From a virus: a stretch of DNA of 64,000 nucleotides. Positions 15,679-57,758 of this stretch are shown one piece after another. The stretch is from IMG/VR virus record IMGVR_UViG_3300042894_005670, one strand, 5' to 3'. Positions within the stretch are counted from its first letter, which is position 1; the number at the start of each line of letters is the position of its first letter. Made by a program: the position numbers and the translations under genes. The notes under the pieces were generated by a model that was not told the origin of the DNA, searched no databases, and worked only from the letters and a program-made list of their open reading frames with translations.

Positions 15679-17076
15679 TTAACTTCCTTTCTTAAACTGT
15701 GCTAACATTTGTTTTACTTTATTACTTTGAACATCAGCTACTACTTTACTTTCTTCAGGTTCTTCTTCTACTCGATTAATAACCTGACTATTAGTTTTAA
15801 TCTTACTTAGTATTGATGATCCTGTATGTACTTCATGTGTGGTTCCATCCTCGCCATCATCAAAGATTTTCAACGTTTCTTTATTAAATGACAAATCAAT
15901 CTTAGTACCTACTCCTGAACTACTACGAGTTTTCATCAATTGTAATTGATATTTTCCTTTCTCACGCATGTTTCTACTAGTAAAAATACCAAAGACATTG
16001 TCAGCAGTGTTAATTTTACTAATTCCACCACTGATATGACTATGATCAAATTCACTTTCTTCTACCGCACTACGATTTAATTGTGAAGCAGTTACAAATA
16101 ATGCATTTAACTCTTTTGCTAAATTACGTAATTCTTCACTAACGTATTTGTCTTTGACAAATAAATCACTTGGGCTTACTTTAGCAGATACAGGCATCAT
16201 AAGATCTAGGTAGTCAACACAAATAAAGTCTAGTTTAGTGTCAGTTTGAACTTGTAATTCTTTACAATAAGCTCGCAAATCATTGACGGTGCTTTGGGCT
16301 GGCATGTATTTGACACGTAATTGCCCTGCTTTCTTTTGAATCATTTTTACTTTTAATTCAACATCATCAATTTGTTTCCATACATCATTAGTAGGAATGT
16401 CAGTCATCATACCATCCATCCGCCAAGAACATAGTTCTTCACTTAGTTCTAAGGTTACATACACACCATTTAATCCCATAGCAGACCATGTTACTGCTAA
16501 ATTTTGCATGAATAATGACTTACCTGATCCACTACCACCCAAAAACAGTTGTAATTCACCACGATTAAACCCACCATATAATTTACGATCAAGAACAGGC
16601 CATCCTGTGGTTACTTGCCCATTTTTTGCCTTAATAGCCATCAATCTGCCACGTGGGTCATCATAATAATCAATGCCCATATCTTTTGTTAAGCTAATCT
16701 GTACCGCATCTTTAACAAGTTTTTCAACAGGATCATAGTTTCCTTTTTCAAGTAATTCTGCACTTTTTAAAATAGCACGTTCTAATTCTTGTTTACGTGT
16801 AAATTTTTCAAATTCATCTAAAAACCATTCTATATCATGATCACGCAAATCATGTATTTTATCTAATTCGATATTTGTAGTTACACGAATTGTTTCCGCA
16901 TCAGGTATACCATTGTACTTTTGTGAATACTCTTGTAAAAATTTTACAGCAGGACGCAACCTTTTAGTAAAATTGTCAGCGTTTAAAATGTTCTGAACAC
17001 GTGTGAATAAATGATGTTCAGTTAACATCATATTTAAAAACAATGTTTGTACTTCGTCGGTATACTCTATTTTCAC
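15679..17076 (-). CDS. Replicative DNA helicase (DnaB/T4 gp41-like)
   Basis: GGSGSGKS Walker A, TLELSE, VDYLDL, TASQLNR and MKTR motifs. Confidence 0.93.
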   Translation of the reverse strand: MKIEYTDEVQTLFLNMMLTEHHLFTRVQNILNADNFTKRLRPAVKFLQEYSQKYNGIPDAETIRVTTNIELDKIHDLRDHDIEWFLDEFEKFTRKQELERAILKSAELLEKGNYDPVEKLVKDAVQISLTKDMGIDYYDDPRGRLMAIKAKNGQVTTGWPVLDRKLYGGFNRGELQLFLGGSGSGKSLFMQNLAVTWSAMGLNGVYVTLELSEELCSWRMDGMMTDIPTNDVWKQIDDVELKVKMIQKKAGQLRVKYMPAQSTVNDLRAYCKELQVQTDTKLDFICVDYLDLMMPVSAKVSPSDLFVKDKYVSEELRNLAKELNALFVTASQLNRSAVEESEFDHSHISGGISKINTADNVFGIFTSRNMREKGKYQLQLMKTRSSSGVGTKIDLSFNKETLKIFDDGEDGTTHEVHTGSSILSKIKTNSQVINRVEEEPEESKVVADVQSNKVKQMLAQFKKGS

Positions 17077-18056
17077 AATACTTTATCTTTATAAATTTTA
17101 ATCTTTGCTTTACTGATTGTTGCGTGTTGAATAATACTTAGTAATGTAGCTAATTTACCATACTTTAAAACCGCATCATTAACATCCTTAATTGTACTAT
17201 CCCATGTTGGAGGTATGCTTACACTATACCCATAGTCTAATGCTCGCTCAATACCTTTAAATCCCGCAAGATCACGATCAGGTACGTAAATAATTCTACG
17301 CTTTAACTTAGATATTAACCAAGATTGTTTTTCACTGACTTCATTGGACATGATAGCACAACCACCAATAGCCAATGCGTCAAACTGTCCTTCAACCAAT
17401 ATACAAATTTCCCAACTTGGATCCTGCCTATCTAAATTAAAAACATAACCTGATTGTTGCTCGGATATGTACTTAGGTTTTATATCATCGTAATATCTAC
17501 TTGTATATCCCACAGTCCTACCATTTAAAAAATATGGGATAATTATACGATGGGCATCACGACCTTCACCCTTAGGTGTCACCATGAACTGATAATCATC
17601 ATACATAAACCCACGTGCAGCTAAAATATTAACAAATCGTATGTGCTGTGGATTATTTGGGTTTATAATTTCAGCATCTTTTGGCAATGCTATATCTTTA
17701 AAAATTAACTCATGCTGTACTTTAGTTTTGACTAACAATGACGTATCACGCAATCGCAATGCTTCCATTGATAATGCTGCTACCTCATCATCAGACATTC
17801 CCATCCATGATAATAATTTTCTAAAGTGGTCACTTAATAATTTTCCCGTTGAATAACCACATTTGAAATTACAATTGAAACAGGAATAATTGATTTTATC
17901 ATCACCTGTTACTATTAGTCCACCACGCATACGAGTATCTACACGATGCCCACGATGATGACAACATACAGCATTGGCAGATATCCATCCACCACCCGTA
18001 CGTTTATGCTTGCGGTTACACCAAAAATGTAGTGTTTTATCAATAATAGTATTCAT
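17073..18056 (-). CDS. DNA primase (T4 gp61-like, TOPRIM)
   Basis: N-terminal Zn-binding Cys/His region (CCHH..CFNC), VEGQFDA, PDRD and KDVND. Confidence 0.9.
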   Translation of the reverse strand: MNTIIDKTLHFWCNRKHKRTGGGWISANAVCCHHRGHRVDTRMRGGLIVTGDDKINYSCFNCNFKCGYSTGKLLSDHFRKLLSWMGMSDDEVAALSMEALRLRDTSLLVKTKVQHELIFKDIALPKDAEIINPNNPQHIRFVNILAARGFMYDDYQFMVTPKGEGRDAHRIIIPYFLNGRTVGYTSRYYDDIKPKYISEQQSGYVFNLDRQDPSWEICILVEGQFDALAIGGCAIMSNEVSEKQSWLISKLKRRIIYVPDRDLAGFKGIERALDYGYSVSIPPTWDSTIKDVNDAVLKYGKLATLLSIIQHATISKAKIKIYKDKVL

Positions 18057-18108: not shown

Positions 18109-18990
18109 TTATCTAGCGTATATAGCAACAACATCACCTTTTAAGTACTGTTGATTTGTTTCAGGAGGACCACTACCATAATTCTGTATAGCTAAACGTA
18201 CATAAGGATGATAGCCTGTTATGGTAGTGCCCACGGTCAATGTTTCGCCTGTAGGGTATGGTAAAGCATTTGCGTTACCATAAACAACCACATTACCAAT
18301 ATTGTAAGCACGACTAAAATCAGCGATGTTGCTACCTTCAATAGTTATATTACCACAAAATTCTTCTATTCTATATTGAATAGTCAAATATTGTGCATCT
18401 TCATTTTTAATTTCACTGCTGTAGTACATCTTGGGTTGAGGTTGGGTACTATTACCACCTTGCATAGCATTGCCTTGTGTAGGTCTTGGATGTGTTGGTA
18501 TGGTTACATCAAGTGCAGGAATTACCCTAGGGAAAATACTATCAACAACAATTAAGTTACCTCTAGCTGATCCGCTTGCATTGACAAAAACAGCCATACC
18601 TGCAGTTTGAGGATTTACTTCAGGTACATCACTTATTTCAACGGAATAGTAACAATATTGAGGTTGAATTAAATCTACTTCAGAGGCAGTTAATTCTAAA
18701 TTAAAAATCCCTGTAATAGGTAAGTTAGCAGTTAATGCTTTAGTAAGAATTAGTTCAGTGCCGTTATTATTGATAACACGGAAATATAAATATTTTCCAA
18801 CTAAATTTACAGGTTTTTGATCTTGATTAATAAACGCAAATTCTAGTAAATTATCAACACCACGATTTAACATTAAGTCTTTAGCGTACACGATACTATA
18901 TCTCCTTGTAGCAATATTTCCTGCGGCACTTAATAAAACCACATATTGTCTTTGATTATATAAATACATTTGCGTTTGGTATGCAGCCAC
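18109..18990 (-). CDS. Hypothetical protein, probably structural
   Basis: 293 aa from GTG; RGVDN..F.FINQDQKPV motif; ATAAATA box upstream. Confidence 0.55.
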   Translation of the reverse strand: MAAYQTQMYLYNQRQYVVLLSAAGNIATRRYSIVYAKDLMLNRGVDNLLEFAFINQDQKPVNLVGKYLYFRVINNNGTELILTKALTANLPITGIFNLELTASEVDLIQPQYCYYSVEISDVPEVNPQTAGMAVFVNASGSARGNLIVVDSIFPRVIPALDVTIPTHPRPTQGNAMQGGNSTQPQPKMYYSSEIKNEDAQYLTIQYRIEEFCGNITIEGSNIADFSRAYNIGNVVVYGNANALPYPTGETLTVGTTITGYHPYVRLAIQNYGSGPPETNQQYLKGDVVAIYAR

Positions 18991-19014
18991 GTGAATATCC
19001 TTTATTTTGTATTT

Positions 19015-19389
19015 ATGTCATCAGAATTTTTAAAAAAGTTGAGTTCAAATCATCCGTTTATAACCGTATGCTCCTATGCAGGTCAAGAGTATATTGGTGT
19101 TGTGCAAAACCGTGATGATGATGTTACAACATTCTATGATTATGGTGCTATCATTGAACACGAATTAAAACAATTATTTTTAGAATTAGGTGATGTATGG
19201 TGGTGGGAAAGTAATCGTCTTATACCTATCAACATCTTTTTAAAAGATGAATGGCATGTATTTAAACAATATCTTAGAACATTTAATAATAAATCTCTAG
19301 TGATTATTCACGGACCAACCACCTCGATTAGTGAACTAAGCAAAAGACGTGTTAAGCGTAAAAGCATTACGTTGGTCAAGCGCATGTAA
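19015..19389 (+). CDS. Conserved hypothetical phage protein
   Basis: One of only three credible plus-strand genes; WWWESNRLIPINIFL; TATAAATA at 18959-18966. Confidence 0.75.
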   Translation: MSSEFLKKLSSNHPFITVCSYAGQEYIGVVQNRDDDVTTFYDYGAIIEHELKQLFLELGDVWWWESNRLIPINIFLKDEWHVFKQYLRTFNNKSLVIIHGPTTSISELSKRRVKRKSITLVKRM

Positions 19390-19962
19390 TCCTAATTCTT
19401 CAATCAAGTTCATATGTACAACCACCAAGTGTGCATAACTTATTGAATGACTTTTCTTAAACGAATACCCATCATGATCAGTTTTGTCCCATACAGTTTG
19501 ATTAACTTCACTCCATGTCTTACCAATCAAATGCCTTTTAGCAGGACGAATTACAGCTAAAAACATTGCCATACGTGGTATGGTATTGATAGGTTCAGGC
19601 ATTTTTCTCATCGTATCATAATGTTCACCAATATGAATCAATGACTGAAAGAATTCTTTATCATATAATTTTGACCAATTAGGCTCGGCCATTAATTTGA
19701 TAAGATGATTTTCGTCCCGAACATGCTTGTATACCCAAACATTTAAAAAATCTAGCTTGATATAGTTTCTATCTTCGGCTTGTTTATATTCAAGTGCCGC
19801 CCAATCATGTATAGGGTCATAAGGAATGTTAGTCACGTATACGCCTGTAGGATGTTTTTTTACGCCATCCGTAGTTTTCATGTGAGCAGCAACGTATTTG
19901 ATATGCTGTAAAATATCATTGCGGTCAGCAAAGTCAATATCAATGTCACTATTGAAAGTCAT
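19336..19962 (-). CDS. Minimal DNA polymerase III alpha (DnaE/family C)-like protein
   Basis: SDIDIDF, KHPTGVY, IKLDFL, AVIRPA and YSFKKSHSISY match DnaE motifs PDIDxDF, HAAGVV, KFDFL, ALYRPG and YGFNKSHAxxY. Confidence 0.85.
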   Translation of the reverse strand: MTFNSDIDIDFADRNDILQHIKYVAAHMKTTDGVKKHPTGVYVTNIPYDPIHDWAALEYKQAEDRNYIKLDFLNVWVYKHVRDENHLIKLMAEPNWSKLYDKEFFQSLIHIGEHYDTMRKMPEPINTIPRMAMFLAVIRPAKRHLIGKTWSEVNQTVWDKTDHDGYSFKKSHSISYAHLVVVHMNLIEELGLHALDQRNAFTLNTSFA

Positions 19963-20678
19963 AAATCCATTTGCTCAATAATTCGCTTAATTGATTCGAC
20001 TGTATCTTTTTCACGATACAATTTTATACCCCATACGTCAGGATTAATATAATCAAAAATTAATTTGATTTGATCTTGGTTAAGATTTTCAATAAATGCT
20101 CTACCATGTGTAGAGTTGTACAAAAACCATGGACTAATTTGCCCATTAATTACTGAATAACATAGTTTATTATGATTTAAAAATTTAAAGGCATCACGTA
20201 CTTGTATATTTTGTTCATGACATAATATTTTTAACGATTCAATACTACGTTTAACAGCATCATACGCATCTTCTAATTTTAAATAGTCGATAAGAAACTT
20301 GGTATAGTATACATCACTATTCCAACTATCAATGATAACCTTGTGTGATACAAGATAATCAATGTAACGAGCAATGTTAATAACTTTATTAGCTAGGCAG
20401 TAACTAGCAAACTTAATAAATGCGCTATAAAATGGACTATAGATAAAATCTATGTACTCAAGTTTTGATTTAGTAGGATGATTTTTTTGGTGATACATTT
20501 TAAAAGCACCGTGTGCAAAACGATTGACTTGGTTATCACGTTCATTCCATCGACGTTTTGATTCACACAAATGTGTTAATAATGTACTCTCACGTATAAA
20601 TGATCGTTTACAAAACTCACATTGATTAGTAATTTCCGTTTTCTTTTTCGTAGTCATTAATATCTTGTTCATTGACAA
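19959..20678 (-). CDS. Zinc-finger-containing hypothetical protein
   Basis: CEFC-x12-HLC C2H2-like finger at the N-terminus. Confidence 0.6.
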   Translation of the reverse strand: MSMNKILMTTKKKTEITNQCEFCKRSFIRESTLLTHLCESKRRWNERDNQVNRFAHGAFKMYHQKNHPTKSKLEYIDFIYSPFYSAFIKFASYCLANKVINIARYIDYLVSHKVIIDSWNSDVYYTKFLIDYLKLEDAYDAVKRSIESLKILCHEQNIQVRDAFKFLNHNKLCYSVINGQISPWFLYNSTHGRAFIENLNQDQIKLIFDYINPDVWGIKLYREKDTVESIKRIIEQMDL

Positions 20679-21635: not shown

Positions 21636-22135
21636 TAGAACACCTGTTTATAATCTACAATTTCACAATTACGACTGATTTCTTTGACAAAATAGATACA
21701 ACGTGGTTTTTCATTGTTATCTATAGGTACACAAAGAAACTGTCCGTTTTTTAGCCTAGGGGCATACCATGTTACATCATGATATATGTCAATGATTTCA
21801 ATGTCAAGAAAAGTTGGTCTAAAACCACTTAATGGATTAAATTGAAACGCTTTAAATCCACGATCATTAATACTAGTAAGTGGCACAGTTTCTAGGTCAC
21901 CAAATTCAGGTTCGCCTATCAGTATTTGCCAATCTAGAGGCATCTTGATAATTTCATCTTGGATACGTAATACTAGCGCAGGACTGTTAAATGATTCTAA
22001 AAATATAAGTGGTATAAAAAAGTAATCAACTGCATTGGGATTACTATTATCTAATATAGCAAATCGTAAGTCATCAATTTCTTCAGGTAGATTCTCTAAA
22101 TTAAATTTTGTATCATCCAATAATAATATGTTCAT
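21635..22135 (-). CDS. Conserved hypothetical phage protein
   Basis: 166 aa coupled to UvsW; PLIFLESF motif. Confidence 0.65.
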   Translation of the reverse strand: MNILLLDDTKFNLENLPEEIDDLRFAILDNSNPNAVDYFFIPLIFLESFNSPALVLRIQDEIIKMPLDWQILIGEPEFGDLETVPLTSINDRGFKAFQFNPLSGFRPTFLDIEIIDIYHDVTWYAPRLKNGQFLCVPIDNNEKPRCIYFVKEISRNCEIVDYKQVF

Positions 22136-23589
22136 TTATAGTTCAACTTTTCCATTGTAAATGGATAATTCGCTTCTTTGTAAAATGACTTTCTCTGTGT
22201 CAAGTGACGTTTTGAAAATTTACAACTTGAAGTAATATCCCAAATTTGCACAAAGTCCTTATCCTCAGCTTTACGCAAACCACGTCCTATACTCTGTATA
22301 ACACGTACAAAACTCTTCCCAGGCTCAATAAACACCAAATTAAAAATCCTTGGTATATTAATACCCACTGCTGCTACACCATACGTTGCAATAATTATCT
22401 TTTCATCCTGTATAGCAACATCTTCATATTCTTCTTTACGCTTTTTATTACTTGTATTACCACTGACAAATACTGCGTTAGATAATCGTTTGGCTAATTC
22501 TTTTCCTGCAGTAATACGATCAACCAAGACTAGAGTATTACCACTTTCCACAATATTGTCAATAAGTTTAGCTATCATGTTTAAACGATCTTCTTGCTCT
22601 AGCAAATATTTTAATTCACTTTGGTAGGTTTTAAATTCAGCAAAATCTTGTAACTGCACGACATTGACATGACATGTTGCAAGAACGCCACGATCTTGCA
22701 AATCTGTTGCTGCTAACCTATTGATGACAGGACCGATACACGTAAACAATGCCTCTGACGCAAACTTTTCTTTTGGTATCGTACCTGTTAAACCCCATCG
22801 TATACATATTTTTGATAACGACCCACTTAACATTGCCTTTAAAATATCTGCTTTAGCCATGTGGCATTCATCAATCACTAACGCCACAACATCTTGTATG
22901 AACTCTTCTATGGTGATATCACCAACACCATCTTGAGTGTTTTTAATAATATTGTTCAAGCTTTGCCATGTAACAATAGTATGTTTATGTCCAAGCTCTT
23001 TTCTATCACCAAAGTATACACCAACATCTAAACTTAAATTTTTATAATCGTCTTCTGTTTGTGTAACTAATGATTTATTAGGAACGATAACAATGGTTCT
23101 ACCATATGGTTCGCAACGATTACTCAATGTTGCTGTGATAAGTGTTTTACCTGCGCCTGTAGCAACTTCCTGTACACATTGTGGATTGGATAAAAACTGA
23201 TTGGTAATGTCAATTTGATAATCACGTAAAATAACAGGCTCACCTGCCTTAGGATGACCTGTAGGCCATGTTGCACTTGAAAAAGTATGCTCATCAACCT
23301 TTTCAAAAGTAAACGATTGCCCATAATCACGTATATCGTCTAATTCAATGTCATAACCATTTTGCTCAAGATAGGGAACAATTTGATCTAATAAATTGAT
23401 GTAAGTAGCACCACCCAAAGTAAAGTATGATGTTTTACCATTCCATCGACCAAGCTTAACCATAGGCATAAACCTAGCCCCAGGTATCTCATACTCAAAT
23501 TGTTTCACTAGGTATTTTCGGTCATCAAGATGAAGTCCTTCTATTTTTGCATTGACTTCATCTTTTACAATAATTTTTGCAGTAGGCAT
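22132..23589 (-). CDS. uvsW: SF2 DNA helicase (UvsW-like)
   Basis: LRDYQ, ATGAGKT, DECH, GLTGT and QSIGRGLR. Confidence 0.9.
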   Translation of the reverse strand: MPTAKIIVKDEVNAKIEGLHLDDRKYLVKQFEYEIPGARFMPMVKLGRWNGKTSYFTLGGATYINLLDQIVPYLEQNGYDIELDDIRDYGQSFTFEKVDEHTFSSATWPTGHPKAGEPVILRDYQIDITNQFLSNPQCVQEVATGAGKTLITATLSNRCEPYGRTIVIVPNKSLVTQTEDDYKNLSLDVGVYFGDRKELGHKHTIVTWQSLNNIIKNTQDGVGDITIEEFIQDVVALVIDECHMAKADILKAMLSGSLSKICIRWGLTGTIPKEKFASEALFTCIGPVINRLAATDLQDRGVLATCHVNVVQLQDFAEFKTYQSELKYLLEQEDRLNMIAKLIDNIVESGNTLVLVDRITAGKELAKRLSNAVFVSGNTSNKKRKEEYEDVAIQDEKIIIATYGVAAVGINIPRIFNLVFIEPGKSFVRVIQSIGRGLRKAEDKDFVQIWDITSSCKFSKRHLTQRKSFYKEANYPFTMEKLNYK

Positions 23590-39640: not shown

Positions 39641-42361
39641 CTATTCAAAAGTAAATAGTGAGTCAAATTTATTGTTTATGTTTGTATTTTTTTCTAAATC
39701 CCATCCTAATACACCAAGTAGATTGTCAATCTTTTTATCTACTAATGTATATTCCATTTCACGATCATCAAATGGTAATTCAACAAACCATTGTGGTAAT
39801 CGTAACTCATCAGTAGGGTACGCAATACTTGTAAAATTTAACGGGTTGTTTTTTAACTTACAAACAATAATTTTAGAACCATTGGTAATCTTTGTACTGT
39901 AATTATCATGGTTTAGTTGTCGAAGAAAATTCCAATTAAGCGAGGCACGAACGTGGCCTGGCATGTTGACTTTACCATCTTTACTACGGTTTAATTTTTC
40001 TTCATACAACGCTAACTTATTAACTGCTTTAGGACTACCTTTATTCCAACTTGGCATTTCACGTAGTTTATGTTTGAAAGTTATAATCTTTTTAATAATG
40101 TCATCACGTGAAGATCCTCCTAGAACATCTTCTAGTATACTGAATAAAAACTCTTGTACAAATTTTGGTGTGTCAGCACGTTTTAGATCAAGACCCATTG
40201 CCTTAATCTTACCTAACTTACCATCATTGTCTAAACGTTTACCTTCTTTGTCATAAATGTTAACTGCATATCTTTTCTTAGTAATAAACAATCCACGATC
40301 AGCAACTAATTCACGTCCTGCTTTAATAATAGAACCACTTGATTTAGGACAATGAAAGGTATCATACATAAATTGTGGAAAACTTTGATTGACTGTATTG
40401 CCTAACTCATCATATATAGCAATTGCATTTTCTTTAGTCCACGTCTTTTTTAGTTCAGCATCTTGTGACCATATAGGCCATCCACTGAAATAACATGAGT
40501 CAGTGTCACCATAAACAATAGCATCACCTGTATGATCATATTCGCCTGTAATTAATTCATTTAAATACGCACTCATATGTTTTACAATTTGTCTACCTGT
40601 TAATGTAGTACTTTGTCCAATACGTTTATCGTAAAATCGACAATGTTGATTCAATAGCGCACCATAGGCAGAGTTAAGTAAAATCTTACGTACAAGTTGT
40701 CGTTTATCATAAAACTCAGCTTCTTCGGGGGTTTTTGCTTCTTTAAGTTGTTTTTGAATTTGTTTACGTTCGTTATACCACCTCGTCAACAACCCAGGTA
40801 TCACCCCCTCTACTTCATTAGTAAAAATAGTACCATTGGCACTAAGTATCCATGGTTTACCACTGTTAAAAATTAGTTCGTGTATTTCCGCAGCACTTGC
40901 TACATCACTGCCACCACTTTCCCAATCAATAGTAATCATAGTATGACGTTCTTTATTCATCACCGCCGTATATTCTAAACTACCAAACAATCCTTCCCAT
41001 AGGATAGGACCATCCTCGCCTTCTACCTCAGTATCTTCAGATGCATTGCGATTTTTTTTCTTTTCTCGTGCTAGTTTTTGGCTTTTATCATATAAGTATT
41101 GATCAGTTAAAGTTTGTTTTAGTTGTCCAACTATTGTTTCAGGTGCCATGTTTAGTGCACGAATCGTCGATGGATATAGCGAGTTTAAATCAACTGCTGC
41201 TATCCATTCATGTATACCTTTTTTAGGATAAGCAACATATGCACCCGCAGCTTTACTTTCATCATCAGTATCACGTGTAGGTTTGTCAGGTATGATTAAC
41301 CCACGTGAATGTGCTTCGTTAATCACAGCTTGTTCAATCATAGCTACACTGCCCATCACGGTAGGTAATAATACGGTATTTTGATGTGCAATGCTATTGG
41401 CTAAGTCTAAAAATTTTAGTTTGTTATGAATCTTAAAAAGAAGCATCGTATCTTGACGGTTATACTCTAAGAATGTTTTCCAATCATTATTGTATAGTTG
41501 ATCAAGTGTACCTTCGTAAGGTGTTTTCTTTTCACCTACTTCCATTTCACCAATATAATCAAGTTTATAACTATGACGTTGTTCGTAATTATATTTTTTA
41601 TATAACTCAAGGTAATCCATGTGTATACGACCAACTAAATCATAAGTAACTTGTTTTTGATCAAATTGAACAAACTCACGTTGTTTTGGTGGTTGGTTGA
41701 GTAAACAAAAACGGTAAGTATCTTCTTTCGATAATACTCTTGTTACACGATTAACCATATATGGTATATCATAGCCACCACTATTCCATCCTGTTAACAC
41801 ATCAGCATCTTCAATCAGTGTAAAAAATGTATCAAACATTTCTGCTTCATCTGCAAAAACAAAGGTATTTTCAAATGATGATGTAATTTCTATTATTTCA
41901 TCTTGTGATAATCCTTTTGGTGGCACACATAGTGTAATCAGTGTATTGCACCAATCAAGATACATTGAAATAGAATTGACTGCATTAAACGGATCACTTG
42001 GTGGTGCGAATCCATATTCAGGGTCAAAGTTTACCTCAATGTCAAAAAAACATGTATGTAATTTTGGTGGTGGAGCATCTAAATAATTATCTGCCAAACA
42101 TCGAAAGACAGGATTGATATCACTTTCATAAGTTTTTTTCTTAGATAATACACGCAATTCTTTTTGAAATTCAGAGCGTTTTGATGTGACGAATTTAGTA
42201 AGTGATTCACCATCTACACCACGATATTTTCCTTTTGGGTCAGGATAATAAAAAATATATTTGGCTTTGTATTCTTGGTAAACACGCTTACCTTTATCAT
42301 CACGTTCTACAATGTAAATGATATCTTTGTCACGATCTAACAACGCATCAACATAACTCAT
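39641..42361 (-). CDS. Family B DNA polymerase (T4 gp43-like)
   Basis: Exo FFDIE and GWNS..YD; polymerase DLNSLYPS, KILLNSAYG, YGDTDS and KKRY; C-terminal SLFTF clamp-binding tail. Confidence 0.97.
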   Translation of the reverse strand: MSYVDALLDRDKDIIYIVERDDKGKRVYQEYKAKYIFYYPDPKGKYRGVDGESLTKFVTSKRSEFQKELRVLSKKKTYESDINPVFRCLADNYLDAPPPKLHTCFFDIEVNFDPEYGFAPPSDPFNAVNSISMYLDWCNTLITLCVPPKGLSQDEIIEITSSFENTFVFADEAEMFDTFFTLIEDADVLTGWNSGGYDIPYMVNRVTRVLSKEDTYRFCLLNQPPKQREFVQFDQKQVTYDLVGRIHMDYLELYKKYNYEQRHSYKLDYIGEMEVGEKKTPYEGTLDQLYNNDWKTFLEYNRQDTMLLFKIHNKLKFLDLANSIAHQNTVLLPTVMGSVAMIEQAVINEAHSRGLIIPDKPTRDTDDESKAAGAYVAYPKKGIHEWIAAVDLNSLYPSTIRALNMAPETIVGQLKQTLTDQYLYDKSQKLAREKKKNRNASEDTEVEGEDGPILWEGLFGSLEYTAVMNKERHTMITIDWESGGSDVASAAEIHELIFNSGKPWILSANGTIFTNEVEGVIPGLLTRWYNERKQIQKQLKEAKTPEEAEFYDKRQLVRKILLNSAYGALLNQHCRFYDKRIGQSTTLTGRQIVKHMSAYLNELITGEYDHTGDAIVYGDTDSCYFSGWPIWSQDAELKKTWTKENAIAIYDELGNTVNQSFPQFMYDTFHCPKSSGSIIKAGRELVADRGLFITKKRYAVNIYDKEGKRLDNDGKLGKIKAMGLDLKRADTPKFVQEFLFSILEDVLGGSSRDDIIKKIITFKHKLREMPSWNKGSPKAVNKLALYEEKLNRSKDGKVNMPGHVRASLNWNFLRQLNHDNYSTKITNGSKIIVCKLKNNPLNFTSIAYPTDELRLPQWFVELPFDDREMEYTLVDKKIDNLLGVLGWDLEKNTNINNKFDSLFTFE

Positions 42362-46289: not shown

Positions 46290-46496
46290 TTAATTATTTT
46301 TAATTAAATCATCCAAATATGCTCTTGCCGCACGATAATGTTCAACTTCAAAATTAAATGTTTTCCATTCGCCACTAGCACATTGTGCAGTAAATGAATA
46401 ACTTCTTAATGGTTGTGCCATAGGTGGTGGTGCCATAGGTGCTTCGTTTGATCCTCCAACTAAACTCATGTTATTATTCTCCTTATGATGAGCCAA
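46290..46496 (-). CDS. Hypothetical protein
   Basis: ORF track; likely start MSLVGG after AAGGAG. Confidence 0.45.
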   Translation of the reverse strand: MAHHKENNNMSLVGGSNEAPMAPPPMAQPLRSYSFTAQCASGEWKTFNFEVEHYRAARAYLDDLIKNN

Positions 46497-48672
46497 AAAA
46501 CTTATTCATCAAAGCTTTTTGTTTTTTAGGTTTTGCCCCAAGTACAGGACTAATATTAGCCACCTTATCAGTGCCACTTAAGTATTTTGGGTTACGCTTG
46601 TCCTCTTTAGTATAACGTGGGTCTTTAGGGTCATACTCAGTACCAAATGCACTCTTAACTTGTGACGAATTGAATATGATATAAGACATATCTATATAGT
46701 CAGCTTGTTTTTGCAAATACTGATGCGCTTCTTGTTCAGCTTCTTCAGGTGTATCGCCTTCACCAATAGGTAAAGTAGGCATAACATTATCAGGTAAATA
46801 TGCTACGTATTTTGATCCTTCTTTTTTAATCGTAAAATTAATGCGCTCATCAGGTCGCAATGTTCGCTTACCTTCATTAGTATTACGATATTGTATACCA
46901 TCATATCCCGCATCAAACAATGAACGTGCTAATTCAGCATAGATTGTTGCTTTACAGTCATCCCAATCCATATCACGATCCCTACGAATTGCTTCAAGTT
47001 CGTTATATTCTTTTTGGTTAATAATCTTTTTCTTAAATAAAAAATTCATAACTTGACGTAAATGCTCTTCATCAGGACCAAATATGTCAGGCATAGTAAA
47101 AGGGTTTGTAATCTTTAAAAATACAGGAATTACACGTGCTCCACTATATTTGGCAAACTCATTAGCTGCTTCACGATTGCCAAAATGTATACCAAAATCA
47201 CGATATAAATTTTTAAACGTTGAAAAATCATTAGATGTACCATGATAAACAATCATAGGAGCACCATTACTATCAACTACTTTACTATTGCCAAACCATG
47301 CTCTTAAATTTTCCTCACGACCTTCTACTAATTCTTTTAAAAAACTCATGGACTCTTTGTTGATATTAGGATTAGTTGGGTCAAATGTACCATCATTGTA
47401 AACGGATTTGATTTGCTCAGGGCGTAATGCTATGTACCACGTTTTGGTTCTGCCTTTTATAACGAAGCCATCATTACCGTTTTCTGTAGCCTTTTTAAGA
47501 AGATTACGCACTTGGACGTATCCCTTACTAGAATTAGACATTGACACCCATTTGTCCACGGATATAGAAAGCGGATTTTTAATAGATAAGAAAACGGGGA
47601 TGATGTTGGCACCTTCTTGTTGAGCATACCCGCCAGCATCCGAGGCTGACGTTGAGAAAAAGATGCCTAGATAATCAGTTGCATTTGGCACACTGCTGCC
47701 TTTTGGCGCAGACTTGTCAAACGCTGCAAAGTTTCTGAGCGTACCGTGATACACCACTAACGGATCGCCTCTTTCATCAACCACCTTACTATTACCAAAC
47801 CACTTATTAAAATTATTTTTTCTATCATTACTATCTTCTTTAGTAATGTCAGGTTCATATTTACCAAATGTACCTACATTATATATAGACTTGATTTGAT
47901 ACTGTTCAAATGGACGATAAGTTAAAATAATCGGTGTGCCCTCAGCACCAAGTTCTAACTCTTTTCCATCACGTGGTTCATATTTTTGGGAACCTGCTTC
48001 AAAAACATCTTTTAAAATGACACCATCATATCCCATACCTTGTAGGTAACTTACAATATCTTCACTATCTGCAATAGTATATGTATCTATAACCGTATTG
48101 TCTAGTGCATCCTCAATAGAACTAATATCGTCTGCTTCACCCCATGTGTCAATTTGATCTGAAAGGTCACGAAATCCTTTTATTCTAAAACCATCATCGT
48201 CATAAGCATTGATTGAAAATCTTGCGCCTGTTTTGTATATAATTTCATCTAAATCATATATCATATAGGACACATCTCTCCAACCTAATTTTTTACGTCC
48301 ACCATCAGGTACATTTAGATCACTAGGCACCGTATTAATAAAATCTATTAATGATATTGTTTCGTTATAACGGGTAAGATCTAATGGTTTAACAATTCGT
48401 AAATACGCTGCGATTACAGTAGAACCACTACCATATTGTCTTGTGTCTAAATGTCTAGAGTATACACTAGCTGCTGCAGGGTCATTAGTAAAAGATGGTA
48501 CTGCACGACCTTGAGTTAATTTAAATTCTGTGGCAGCAGGTCGCTTACGTGTACCACGATATACAACAAGTGGGTTGCCATTACTATCAACCACTTTACT
48601 ATTACCAAACCAACTACGAAATGCTTTTGTCTCTCTAGCTTTTTGGTATTCTAATAATTGTCCAATTTTCAT
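46483..48672 (-). CDS. Protein with three tandem ADP-ribosyltransferase-like (ART-PolyVal-type) domains
   Basis: Three WFGNSKVVD..G.P..VY[RH]GT starts, each with [YF]L.I..P, G.DG and Q[IV]KS. Confidence 0.75.
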   Translation of the reverse strand: MKIGQLLEYQKARETKAFRSWFGNSKVVDSNGNPLVVYRGTRKRPAATEFKLTQGRAVPSFTNDPAAASVYSRHLDTRQYGSGSTVIAAYLRIVKPLDLTRYNETISLIDFINTVPSDLNVPDGGRKKLGWRDVSYMIYDLDEIIYKTGARFSINAYDDDGFRIKGFRDLSDQIDTWGEADDISSIEDALDNTVIDTYTIADSEDIVSYLQGMGYDGVILKDVFEAGSQKYEPRDGKELELGAEGTPIILTYRPFEQYQIKSIYNVGTFGKYEPDITKEDSNDRKNNFNKWFGNSKVVDERGDPLVVYHGTLRNFAAFDKSAPKGSSVPNATDYLGIFFSTSASDAGGYAQQEGANIIPVFLSIKNPLSISVDKWVSMSNSSKGYVQVRNLLKKATENGNDGFVIKGRTKTWYIALRPEQIKSVYNDGTFDPTNPNINKESMSFLKELVEGREENLRAWFGNSKVVDSNGAPMIVYHGTSNDFSTFKNLYRDFGIHFGNREAANEFAKYSGARVIPVFLKITNPFTMPDIFGPDEEHLRQVMNFLFKKKIINQKEYNELEAIRRDRDMDWDDCKATIYAELARSLFDAGYDGIQYRNTNEGKRTLRPDERINFTIKKEGSKYVAYLPDNVMPTLPIGEGDTPEEAEQEAHQYLQKQADYIDMSYIIFNSSQVKSAFGTEYDPKDPRYTKEDKRNPKYLSGTDKVANISPVLGAKPKKQKALMNKFFGSS

Positions 48673-51599: not shown

Positions 51600-53009
51600 T
51601 TAGAACTTACCTGATGGCTTTGCTATGGGTGGTATACCACTACGTTTAATCTTACCTAAACCTAATTTTATAGCATTTTGTCTAATACTATCAGGTTTAA
51701 TATCAACCGTTAATGCTGTTTTAAATCTTGGATCGTTTTTTTCTGCTTCACTAGGGATATATCCTGAAGCCTCATTAACATTAAATGTAGGATCAACTTT
51801 CTGACGTTTCATTCCTTTGGGTTGGTTAGGGTCAAGAGGATCAATATCCGTAGTAGATAAACCTGTTGCTTCTAAATCATCAATATATTTGTGTTCAGTA
51901 TCTTCATCACCAAATGTTAATATGGTGCTAGGTGGTCCTTTACCAAAATCATGCTTACCTAAACCCTTAAGATTACTAATATGTTGTCCTAACTTATACC
52001 AATCATACACATCACTTACATCTACTCTAACCGTACCTTTTGGCATAGTGGGTTTAAACTCAGGACCAGGTGGGTTTCCGTTAGGGTCATAATCATCACG
52101 TAATTTACTATAATGTTTTCTATTTTTAGCCAAGTTTTTGTATGCCATTTCAGTAGCTAAACTACGCACACTAGTATTTGCCATTTCAAACTTTATACCA
52201 CGCTTTAATTCACTTATGATATCATTTCTACTACAACCATGCATCTTTGCTAATTCACTAATAGTATATACAGGTTGTTCAACATTTTTACCAACCTTTT
52301 GCTCCATACTCATCTTTTCACTATGTATTTCATTATAAGTATCACGCAGACGATGCAATAAACCACTAGTACGGAACGCTTTAAATGCTATATTTTCAGG
52401 AGAAAATTCACCTTGTGCATCTAAACCTGCTTTTCGATATTTTCTAATTGTATCTAGTAAGTCTTCAATCTTGTCTATATCTCTAGCTTGTAGTGCTAAT
52501 TCAGCTACTTGTGCTAATTTTTCAAACTTTAATTGACTTGCTGGTTCGTTGATATCAGCAACACGTTTGGTAGGAAATTTTATCCAACGATCTTTTAGTA
52601 CACTGTACTCACCACGACTAACAACAGGATCAGCCGTATCTTGTACGTATAATTCTACTTCATAACCGCCTATAGTAATATCATGTTGCAAATTCCATAT
52701 GATTTTTTTACTATGAAATAACTCACTATAAATTTCATCATTTTTTAATTTCTTAATATCAACTAAAATATGTAAGTCAATATCACTATGTGGCGTATAG
52801 GTATATGAAGCATTGCTACCACTTAGTGTAATATCTTTAACATCTATATTACTTACACCAAGATGCTCCATAAAATCATCTGCAATTTCTAATAACCGAT
52901 CACGCACAGCAGGAATCATGTGTTCATCCCTAAAAATAGCAGGGTTTAACTGATCATGAAACTGTATAGCGTTTGATAATTTAAATTGTTCTAATTCTTT
53001 TAAATTCAT
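51600..53009 (-). CDS. Pol-beta-superfamily nucleotidyltransferase with appended C-terminal modules
   Basis: LSGSNA...SDIDLH and VELYVQD; start MNLKELE. Confidence 0.75.
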   Translation of the reverse strand: MNLKELEQFKLSNAIQFHDQLNPAIFRDEHMIPAVRDRLLEIADDFMEHLGVSNIDVKDITLSGSNASYTYTPHSDIDLHILVDIKKLKNDEIYSELFHSKKIIWNLQHDITIGGYEVELYVQDTADPVVSRGEYSVLKDRWIKFPTKRVADINEPASQLKFEKLAQVAELALQARDIDKIEDLLDTIRKYRKAGLDAQGEFSPENIAFKAFRTSGLLHRLRDTYNEIHSEKMSMEQKVGKNVEQPVYTISELAKMHGCSRNDIISELKRGIKFEMANTSVRSLATEMAYKNLAKNRKHYSKLRDDYDPNGNPPGPEFKPTMPKGTVRVDVSDVYDWYKLGQHISNLKGLGKHDFGKGPPSTILTFGDEDTEHKYIDDLEATGLSTTDIDPLDPNQPKGMKRQKVDPTFNVNEASGYIPSEAEKNDPRFKTALTVDIKPDSIRQNAIKLGLGKIKRSGIPPIAKPSGKF

Positions 53010-53022
53010 AGTTGTATTTAGC

Positions 53023-53056
53023 AAAAAAACCGTGATAGAATTTCTCCTATCACGGT
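53023..53056 (-). terminator. Rho-independent terminator
   Basis: ACCGTGATAG/CTATCACGGT stem followed by T7. Confidence 0.85.
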
Positions 53057-54826: not shown

Positions 54827-55510
54827 TTATGCTACTTCAGGAGGTTTTTGTATTGAGTATTCCTTTTTAATACATTCATGAAAAGTCATATAAAACAATG
54901 ATTGCATATGCTCATCGTCATAATCAAAAAATAAATCTCCACCAATCCATCGACCATTTTTATTATTTGCATCCCAATGCATATAAAAATTAAAATTAGG
55001 AGATGGGAAAAAATGTTTTTTATACTTTGTAAAAAAATCACGTAATTCAATTAATTCGGTATGAGAATACACCCTTGACTTTAAATAGATACGAAAATTA
55101 TGCTTTGGGTTTTTATGATATATAATTTCTTTAGGTCTTGAAAAATTTACAAGTACTTCTTCAACAGTGTTAGGTTGACCTAAAATTTTAGCTAAATCTT
55201 CTATAATATCATAGCGTGTTGAATATACAGTAATACTATTAACATGTTTTAATGTTTTAATATAATCATCATTTGCTGATTTCCATATAAGAAATTTCTT
55301 AATTTCAATTAAGTTTTTAACATAAGCTTCACGAAGATTAGAACGAAGTAATTCGCTTTGTATTATTTCTAAATCATAATTTCTATGGATACCAATTTGC
55401 TTAAGGTCAAAACAAACTTTATATTTGTACTTGTCATACCATAACCAATGTTGATTTACATTAGGTTGCAGTGTTGTATAGCTAAATCCTGATAATACCA
55501 TCTGTTCCAA
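54827..55510 (-). CDS. Hypothetical protein
   Basis: 227-aa ORF. Confidence 0.55.
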   Translation of the reverse strand: MEQMVLSGFSYTTLQPNVNQHWLWYDKYKYKVCFDLKQIGIHRNYDLEIIQSELLRSNLREAYVKNLIEIKKFLIWKSANDDYIKTLKHVNSITVYSTRYDIIEDLAKILGQPNTVEEVLVNFSRPKEIIYHKNPKHNFRIYLKSRVYSHTELIELRDFFTKYKKHFFPSPNFNFYMHWDANNKNGRWIGGDLFFDYDDEHMQSLFYMTFHECIKKEYSIQKPPEVA

Positions 55511-57758
55511 TTACCTCATCCTTATCAATTGTTTTTTCTGCTGTAAAATTAATTTCATCTCCGTTTAGTATAACGTGAACATTAGAATCTTTTAATTTTT
55601 CAAATAAAATCTTTTTACTTAACGGTACTCTGATAAGTTCATCAATCTTACGAGCAAGTGGACGTGCACCCATTTTATCGTCATAACCAACTTTAGCTAA
55701 GTGCTCAACTGCTTGCTCACTAATCGTTAAATTAATCTTGTGCTGTTTAAGTAATTGTGCTTTTAACTCATTAACAAATTTAATAACAATTTTCTTAATG
55801 GCTAACATGTCTAACTTACTAAACTTACATACTAAATCAATACGATTACGCAGTTCAGGTTTGAAAAACTCTTTAAATGCTCGGTCATCTTCACCTACTT
55901 TTTGTGTTGACCCAAAACCAATGTTTGATTTTTCACTATCTCTAGCACCTAAATTACTAGTCATAATAATGATTGTGTTTTTAGCATCTACCGTTTTACC
56001 ATTAGTGCTAGATATTCTACCCTCATCCAATAATTGTAAGAATAAGTTATACACATCAGGGTGTGCTTTTTCAACCTCATCAAACAATAATATAGCGTAT
56101 GGGTTTTTACTTAGATCATTGATAATTTTTCCACCACCAAGATTACCTTCACCATAGCCGACATAGCCTGGGGGCGCACCAATCAAAGCAGCTACGCTAT
56201 GTTTTTCTTGATATTCACTCATATCATAACGTAGCAATGGCATGCTTAAATGTTCGCTTAATAATCGAGCAGTTTCAGTCTTACCGCTGCCTGTTGGTCC
56301 TAAGAATAAGAAACTTGCCATAGGTTTCTTTTCATTAGAAATACCCGCAAAGCTAACATATATTCTATCTAAAATTTTCTCTAATGTAGCATCTTGCCCA
56401 TAGAGTTTTTGTTTAATATTTTGATCTAAGTTAGTCATTTTTTCTGATGAATCATTAGTAAGTTTGTCCGCAGAAACGTTACACATTCTAGTGACTTGTT
56501 CTTTAATACTATTTTCATCAATAATTGCACCAACATTGTTTGCAGCACGTTGTTTAGCACATGCTGCATCGAGTAAATCAATGGACTTATCAGGATTTTT
56601 TCTATCATGAATATATCTTGCGCTCATAGTGACTGCCTCAGTAATAGCATTAGGCATAATTTTTACACCATGAAATGACTCAAGACGTTCACTTAATCCT
56701 GTCAAAATGTCAATAGTAGTTGCATTTGTTGGCTCATCAATAGAAACACGGTAAAATCGACGCATTAAAGCACGATCTTTTTCAAATGATTCGTAGTATT
56801 CTTCCCACGTGGTACTAGCAATTACCTTCAAGTTACCTTTTGTAATTGCAGGTTTAATCATATTGGCAAAGTCTACACTGCCACCACTACCATTTCCACT
56901 ACCACGCATAGTGTGTGCTTCATCTATGAATAAGATAGCTTTAGGTTTGGTTGCTAATGCTTCTAAAACGTGTTTAACTTTTTCCTCAAAATCACCACGA
57001 TACTTACTACCTGCAAGTAGTGATCCAATTTCTAATGAATATACTTCATGGTCAAACAAAAATGGTGGTACATTTTTGTCAAGAATTTTTTGTGCTAAAC
57101 CTTCAGCAAGGACGGTTTTTCCAACGCCTGGGTCGCCAACAAGTAATACATTAGATTTGAAACGTTTAGCTAATACATTGACAATATCATTAACTTCACT
57201 TTCACGCCCAATCAATGGCTCAATTTTATTACGTTTGGCTAACTCAGTTAAACTAATCGTAAACTCATCTAATACTTCATTAGCTTGTTGCTCAGTCATT
57301 TTTCCACTCTTACTACTTTTGTGTGCTTTATTCCAATAAGCAATAAATTCATTCCGTGTTACGCCCCATTTCAATAAGAAATAATGTGCATGGCTGTTAG
57401 TTTCCTGTAAAATTGAAATATATATGTCTATTAGTTCAATTTGTCTGCGTCCTGTGAATAATACTTGTGTTACTGCACGATTAAAAACACGCTCAAGTGA
57501 ATGAGTTTTCTTTGGTGCTACAGGAGTACCATCTTCATTTGGAGACACTTTTAAATTATTGACTGAATCTAAATATTCATCAACTTCTTGAATAAGTTGT
57601 ACTGTATCGACACCAAATTCATCTAGATGTTCCCTAAATGATTCAAAGGTAATCAAACTTAACAAAGCATGTTCTAATGTTACATAACCATGATATCTGC
57701 TTTTTGCAATCTCAATGGCATGCTCAATTAATTTTTCAATTTCAGGGTTGTTTATCAT
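55482..57758 (-). CDS. clpA: Clp/Hsp100 ATPase (ClpA-like)
   Basis: Clp-N domain, two Walker A motifs (GDPGVGKT, GPTGSGKT), KYRGDFE, GAPPGYVG and IGF loop. Confidence 0.92.
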   Translation of the reverse strand: MINNPEIEKLIEHAIEIAKSRYHGYVTLEHALLSLITFESFREHLDEFGVDTVQLIQEVDEYLDSVNNLKVSPNEDGTPVAPKKTHSLERVFNRAVTQVLFTGRRQIELIDIYISILQETNSHAHYFLLKWGVTRNEFIAYWNKAHKSSKSGKMTEQQANEVLDEFTISLTELAKRNKIEPLIGRESEVNDIVNVLAKRFKSNVLLVGDPGVGKTVLAEGLAQKILDKNVPPFLFDHEVYSLEIGSLLAGSKYRGDFEEKVKHVLEALATKPKAILFIDEAHTMRGSGNGSGGSVDFANMIKPAITKGNLKVIASTTWEEYYESFEKDRALMRRFYRVSIDEPTNATTIDILTGLSERLESFHGVKIMPNAITEAVTMSARYIHDRKNPDKSIDLLDAACAKQRAANNVGAIIDENSIKEQVTRMCNVSADKLTNDSSEKMTNLDQNIKQKLYGQDATLEKILDRIYVSFAGISNEKKPMASFLFLGPTGSGKTETARLLSEHLSMPLLRYDMSEYQEKHSVAALIGAPPGYVGYGEGNLGGGKIINDLSKNPYAILLFDEVEKAHPDVYNLFLQLLDEGRISSTNGKTVDAKNTIIIMTSNLGARDSEKSNIGFGSTQKVGEDDRAFKEFFKPELRNRIDLVCKFSKLDMLAIKKIVIKFVNELKAQLLKQHKINLTISEQAVEHLAKVGYDDKMGARPLARKIDELIRVPLSKKILFEKLKDSNVHVILNGDEINFTAEKTIDKDEVIGTDGIIRI

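Follow-up and report, generated by a model that had tools for sequence, protein, structure and literature searches.

A minimal form of the DNA polymerase III (Pol III) alpha subunit, split between two genes, has been described from sequence in the group 2.2 jumbo phages (Iyer, Anantharaman, Krishnan, Burroughs and Aravind, 2021, Viruses 13:63, PMC7824862). The same authors suggested that this minimal Pol III alpha may assist the family B DNA polymerase (PolB), either in making one of the strands or in repair (PMC7824862). Bacterial Pol III alpha (DnaE1, E. coli b0184) and PolC are single chains of ~1160 residues, whereas the phage form amounts to ~370 residues on two chains, and is without the PHP and thumb domains, the segment of the fingers that contains R709 and R710, and the HhH/clamp-binding, OB and tau-binding domains. 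Cyanobacteria likewise encode a family C polymerase on two widely separated genes, but there the halves, DnaE-n and DnaE-c, carry intein pieces and are spliced to a full-length chain (PMC3919608). The phage halves differ in that the break lies elsewhere, inside the palm, and an intein would not fit, because the C-terminal half (hereafter C-half) has just five residues ahead of its DxD strand and the N-terminal halves (N-halves) stop just past an EFL motif. Single pieces of the phage enzyme have also appeared in genome reports, as a “truncated” Pol III alpha of 172 aa in phage CBB (PMC5259590) and as gp316 of Atu_ph07, annotated “Pol III alpha” (PMC6102473). Their length and annotation make these the likely N-half partners, but neither paper linked them to a C-half gene (PMC5259590, PMC6102473). 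The omics paper on PA5oct makes no gene-level statement on either half, and no biochemical study of a split mini-Pol III was found in the literature.

The locus considered here lies in a 64-kb window, the whole stretch of DNA that was analysed, from an uncultured giant phage (IMG/VR record IMGVR_UViG_3300042894_005670). An intact open reading frame (ORF) of 208 aa occupies positions 19336–19962 on the minus strand, and its start codon overlaps the stop of the gene upstream in the sequence ATGA, consistent with the translational coupling proposed in the initial annotation. That annotation saw in it a minimal, stand-alone family C (DnaE-like) polymerase. Taken as a whole, the evidence makes it very probable that the product is instead one part of the split minimal Pol III alpha known from group 2.2 (Rak2/PA5oct/Atu_ph07-like) jumbo phages, its C-terminal subunit, contributing the metal-binding palm strands and miniature fingers. 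It shares with the described C-subunits the phrog_11778 family, the length class (~190–215 aa) and a start at the DxD strand, and it is found in the same type of genome, with a gene order matching those of PA5oct, 121Q, Atu_ph07 and Phosso. It differs in being directly coupled to a zinc-finger gene, and its N-half is predicted to lie outside the window. The gene is therefore an additional member of a family already in the literature, and the stand-alone reading is wrong.

That the protein is a true, miniaturised relative of family C polymerases is clear from several comparisons. Five motifs follow one another as in DnaE, namely DIDIDF (residue 6), HPTG (37), KLDFLN (69), IRPAK (138) and KKSHS (169), with E. 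coli counterparts at 401, 511, 553, 638 and 757. They hold the catalytic aspartates D6, D8 and D71 (E. coli D401, D403 and D555) as well as K69, the equivalent of E. coli K553. A Pfam search with the 208-aa protein gave no match; phrog_11778, labeled “DNA polymerase,” matches it over residues 5–190 (E 9e-56). When a profile of 89 relatives was compared with the PDB, nine of nine distinct sequences matched were Pol III alpha (best E 1e-5), and the alignments were colinear with E. coli 538–641 and 739–769, skipping 642–738. Direct alignment to E. coli DnaE with hhalign (E 4.5e-5) placed K69 and D71 on K553 and D555. The motif order and the three aspartates reported in the initial annotation are borne out by the motif positions and hhalign.

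Structural comparison, which had been proposed as a check, gave the same answer. The AlphaFold2 model of the C-half is confident (pLDDT 92.4, pTM 0.87), except for the last ~20 residues, which are unconserved and of low model confidence, and its palm and fingers fold superimposes on solved Pol III alpha structures. The top 11 Foldseek matches are all Pol III alpha, the best at E 0.011 and none under the E 0.001 cut-off, and with a second structural aligner the separation was clear. The matched region begins at residue 397 in E. coli, 417 in Mycobacterium tuberculosis, 459 in Taq and 967 in PolC, and ends at E. coli ~793.

The initial annotation overlooked that the front of the palm is absent as well, together with its Arg-Gly-Ser nucleotide-binding loop. 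To our knowledge, in every family C polymerase ~120 palm residues, including this loop, precede the DxD strand. The loop holds the incoming nucleotide by its triphosphate. The 208-aa ORF begins five residues ahead of the DxD strand and contains neither the front palm helices nor the loop (E. coli R362-G363-S364). Since the N-terminal half of the nucleotidyltransferase core is missing, the protein is not a stand-alone polymerase: the designation as a family C relative with conserved aspartates stands, but self-sufficiency does not, as the equivalent of E. coli ~276–393 is lacking.

The missing part is encoded in related phages by a separate ORF of ~170–180 aa, which matches PF07733 at positions ~16–97, above the curated cut-off. 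PF07733 detected such N-halves in PA5oct, Atu_ph07, 121Q and Phosso and in two large IMG/VR contigs with a C-half; five further large IMG/VR contigs were chosen for their N-half, and the C-half was also present in all five. Both halves occur as separate genes in 11 of 11 related phage genomes or large contigs. The remainder of the split DnaE is therefore found elsewhere as far as the palm is concerned; the PHP, thumb, HhH and OB regions are truly absent. The N-half ORFs share one end point, “...EFL[KNER]”, whose EFL motif aligns with E. coli ERFLN (389–393), and hhalign places N-half R137-G138-S139 on E. coli R362-G363-S364. Modelled singly, the N-half maps to E. coli 276–393 and the C-half to 397–793, so the two abut as adjoining pieces of one palm, and the break falls in a short linker behind the ERFLN helix. 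All structural matches of both half models are replicative polymerases. Residues 1–65 of the N-half (e.g., in P0305) form a small strand-helix unit, modelled with pLDDT 71–89, that is covered by no structural match.

A natural fused form also exists. P0198 is a single chain of 375 aa with the N-half followed by the C-half, in which “GVGRGSS...LNIKEFIK” is joined directly ahead of the “DFDID” strand. It is encoded on the plus strand of a 2.4-kb ENA metagenome contig (L040:1066-2193), where the gene occupies the usual C-half locus and is followed by the usual convergent small ORF. This is the only single-chain form among the 150 representatives listed, and no close relatives of it were found in IMG/VR. 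Together with the abutting structural ranges, the fused protein offers indirect support for the idea that the separate halves assemble.

The two genes are far apart. In seven relatives (PA5oct, 121Q and the contigs G002, G003, G004, G006 and G007) the N-half gene lies 31–43 kb downstream of the C-half gene on the same strand, and a separation of ~40 kb is unusual for subunits of one enzyme. The C-half and N-half of PA5oct are EST35_0220 and EST35_0288, and in 121Q the C-half is gene 16, with the N-half at 44.5 kb. Within the 64-kb window, no N-half was found by tblastn with the fused form and PA5oct gp288 or by hmmsearch with a seven-sequence profile (best E 0.18). Only 19.3 kb of the window lies downstream of the C-half gene, compared with the 31–43 kb seen in relatives, so this absence is expected. 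From the relatives and their synteny, the N-half gene of this phage would be expected off the left end of the window, some 12–24 kb past position 1. A search for the remainder of the genome gave a best IMG/VR match only 62% identical, and elsewhere only contigs of 1.4–2.9 kb (1394 bp in JGI metagenomes).

The surroundings of the gene are those of a replication module in a T4-related jumbo phage with PolB, UvsW, DnaB and primase genes. Upstream on the minus strand, 19959–20657 encodes a zinc-finger protein of 232 aa (phrog_11058; ATG at 20657) with an N-terminal CCHC/C2H2-like finger, and a UvsW-type helicase is found at 22132–23589 (minus strand). On the other side, a small convergent ORF of the plus strand (phrog_11637; 19015–19389, within an ORF of 18970–19389 whose likely start is 19015) overlaps the final 54 nt of the C-half gene; the same neighbor is present in PA5oct, Atu_ph07, 121Q and Phosso and beside the fused P0198. 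Further along, both on the minus strand, are a DNA primase (phrog_47; 17073–18056) and a DnaB-like replicative helicase (phrog_19; 15679–17076). The full order is UvsW, small ORFs, zinc-finger protein, C-half, convergent ORF, a structural-like protein, primase and DnaB. The order in PA5oct is alike nearly gene for gene, and those in 121Q, Atu_ph07 and Phosso are alike in outline. PolB, which the initial annotation had correctly placed in this phage, is encoded at 39641–42361 (minus strand), contains exonuclease and polymerase domains and is the main replicase. The window also encodes the large subunit of ribonucleotide reductase and an exonuclease.

Several other products of the window deserve mention in their own right. 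On the minus strand, a 474-aa protein (51600–53024) has a weak match to the Pol-beta-type nucleotidyltransferase family PF01909 (E 1.4e-4), and the window may therefore encode a second small nucleotidyltransferase. The same strand encodes a 729-aa protein with an ART-PolyVal ADP-ribosyltransferase domain (46483–48672; E 1e-58) and a 758-aa ClpB-like double AAA+ ATPase (55482–57758).

Even the assembled pair would be a much reduced enzyme. The spacing between the DxD and HxxG motifs, which in E. coli DnaE spans the thumb, is 31 residues in the C-half against 110, indicating that a hairpin turn stands in for the thumb. Between the RP and KSH motifs, which enclose R709 and R710, 31 residues compare with 119, and this segment of the fingers is therefore gone. 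The C-half is without PHP, thumb, full fingers, clamp-binding/HhH, OB and tau-binding domains, in line with the losses listed in the initial annotation, and the pair comes to ~370 residues of palm with a small remnant of the fingers. In E. coli, R709 and R710 help to bind the nucleotide. With this region and the whole thumb missing, templated DNA synthesis is not assured.

In the mechanism that we propose, the C-half would supply the cut-down helical fingers (RP and KSH), the conserved lysine and the beta-strands on which the three metal-binding aspartates sit. Alone it would have an incomplete active site, and the ~170-aa protein would add the front of the Pol-beta-like palm and the Arg-Gly-Ser loop. 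As neither half has room for an intein, the two proteins would assemble without covalent joining, to give a palm-plus-mini-fingers enzyme of ~370 residues devoid of thumb, proofreading, clamp-binding and OB domains. Such a pair would be expected to transfer nucleotides on primer-template DNA, and would most likely work alongside the PolB replisome as an auxiliary DNA polymerase that synthesises short patches non-processively, with primer extension or hand-off, gap filling and repair as candidate roles. A more specific proposal, that the two-chain enzyme is a working template-directed polymerase and that the distance between its genes controls when active enzyme forms, is speculative and, as a whole, rather unlikely. 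Were it true, this would be by far the smallest family C polymerase; assembly might, for example, occur only once both gene blocks are expressed during infection, and, to make up for the lost thumb and clamp-binding domains, the enzyme might be anchored on the primase-helicase or on the conserved zinc-finger protein.

Without the thumb and the R709/R710 segment, a non-templated or non-DNA activity is also conceivable. The two-subunit enzyme could thus be a nucleotidyltransferase and not a templated DNA polymerase, adding untemplated tails, using an RNA substrate or making a nucleotide-derived product. The core that remains is common to other transferases of the Pol-beta fold, and with a complete PolB the phage already has a polymerase. 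However, the near-invariant helices that bear the RP and KSH motifs belong to family C alone and are not shared by other Pol-beta-fold enzymes, the structural matches are to replicative polymerases throughout, and the genes are placed in replication modules, all of which makes a dedicated nucleotidyltransferase quite improbable.

It is very hard to sustain the view that the 208-aa protein suffices as a minimal polymerase, with or without help from the adjacent zinc-finger protein. In its favor are the invariant catalytic aspartates, the confident monomer model and the ATGA overlap with the stop codon of the zinc-finger gene, but the ORF contains neither the Arg-Gly-Ser loop nor the front palm helices, these are encoded by a separate gene in every relative checked, and a fused form of the two halves exists. 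The partnership with the zinc-finger protein that the initial annotation had envisaged likewise finds little support. The gene for this protein is present in the same module in all relatives checked, at 0–6 kb upstream of the C-half gene and usually with intervening genes; the tight coupling in the present phage is therefore a local arrangement. A motif in the zinc-finger protein, DYINPE, resembles DnaE FLNPER, and the protein was considered as the missing half of the palm; this was rejected, as its profile has no DnaE match, hhalign against the fused form gave a probability of 0.1 and the N-half profile an E of 4.4. A protein-cluster search with the zinc-finger protein returned only unnamed viral clusters.

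Conservation is strongest where the active site would be. Among 89 diverse C-half sequences D6, D8, K69, D71 and P140 are invariant and D10, H37, G40, R139, K142, K169 and H172 nearly so, and among N-half sequences the GRGS loop is invariant. Pairwise dN/dS values of the C-half, from pairs with unsaturated dS, are 0.13–0.22, consistent with purifying selection, and lengths are held within 187–216 aa among the matches listed, so that the checks on selection and length proposed in the initial annotation both came out in favor of a functional gene. A catalytically dead remnant, retained to bind a replisome component or for some other structural or regulatory purpose, might be suspected from the extreme loss of domains and because no activity is known for any family member, but it is scarcely credible for proteins whose catalytic residues are the most conserved positions of both halves and whose dN/dS is so low.

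Members of the split mini-Pol III family abound in environmental giant phages. Relatives of the C-half fall into at least 8000 clusters at 90% identity, nearly all of them significant matches, and into 373 representatives at 50% identity. In GenBank, 96 jumbo phages carry a C-half with 39–47% identity, among them Phosso, Atu_ph07, the PA5oct group, Rak2/121Q-like coliphages and XaC1; the closest member from a cultured phage is thus at most 47% identical to the present protein. The N-half family also comprises at least 8000 clusters at 90% identity (163–184 aa among the matches listed), and many sources label its members “DNA polymerase III alpha subunit.” One of the large contigs, IMGVR_UViG_3300033273_000374 (G001), encodes both split halves and, ~10 kb from the C-half, a PHP-less DnaE-like ORF of 566 aa on a single chain (L036:1432-3132, plus strand) with a full PF07733 match (E 1.8e-43). 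This phage would therefore have a second, different reduced family C polymerase.

The present analysis reproduces the 2021 description independently, and adds to it the abutting structural ranges of the two halves, the natural fused form, the conserved position of the N-half gene ~31–43 kb downstream, a quantitative measure of purifying selection and the observation that the zinc-finger gene is not consistently adjacent. For annotation, the protein encoded at 19336–19962 should be labeled as a split enzyme's C-terminal subunit, and neither as a complete “DNA polymerase” nor as a novel stand-alone one. The interest of the family now lies mainly in the biochemistry of the split pair. Since it strips a bacterial replicase to its catalytic core, bench work on these proteins could define the minimum of a family C polymerase, and the family also bears on the suggestion that such forms resemble ancestral polymerases (PMC7824862).
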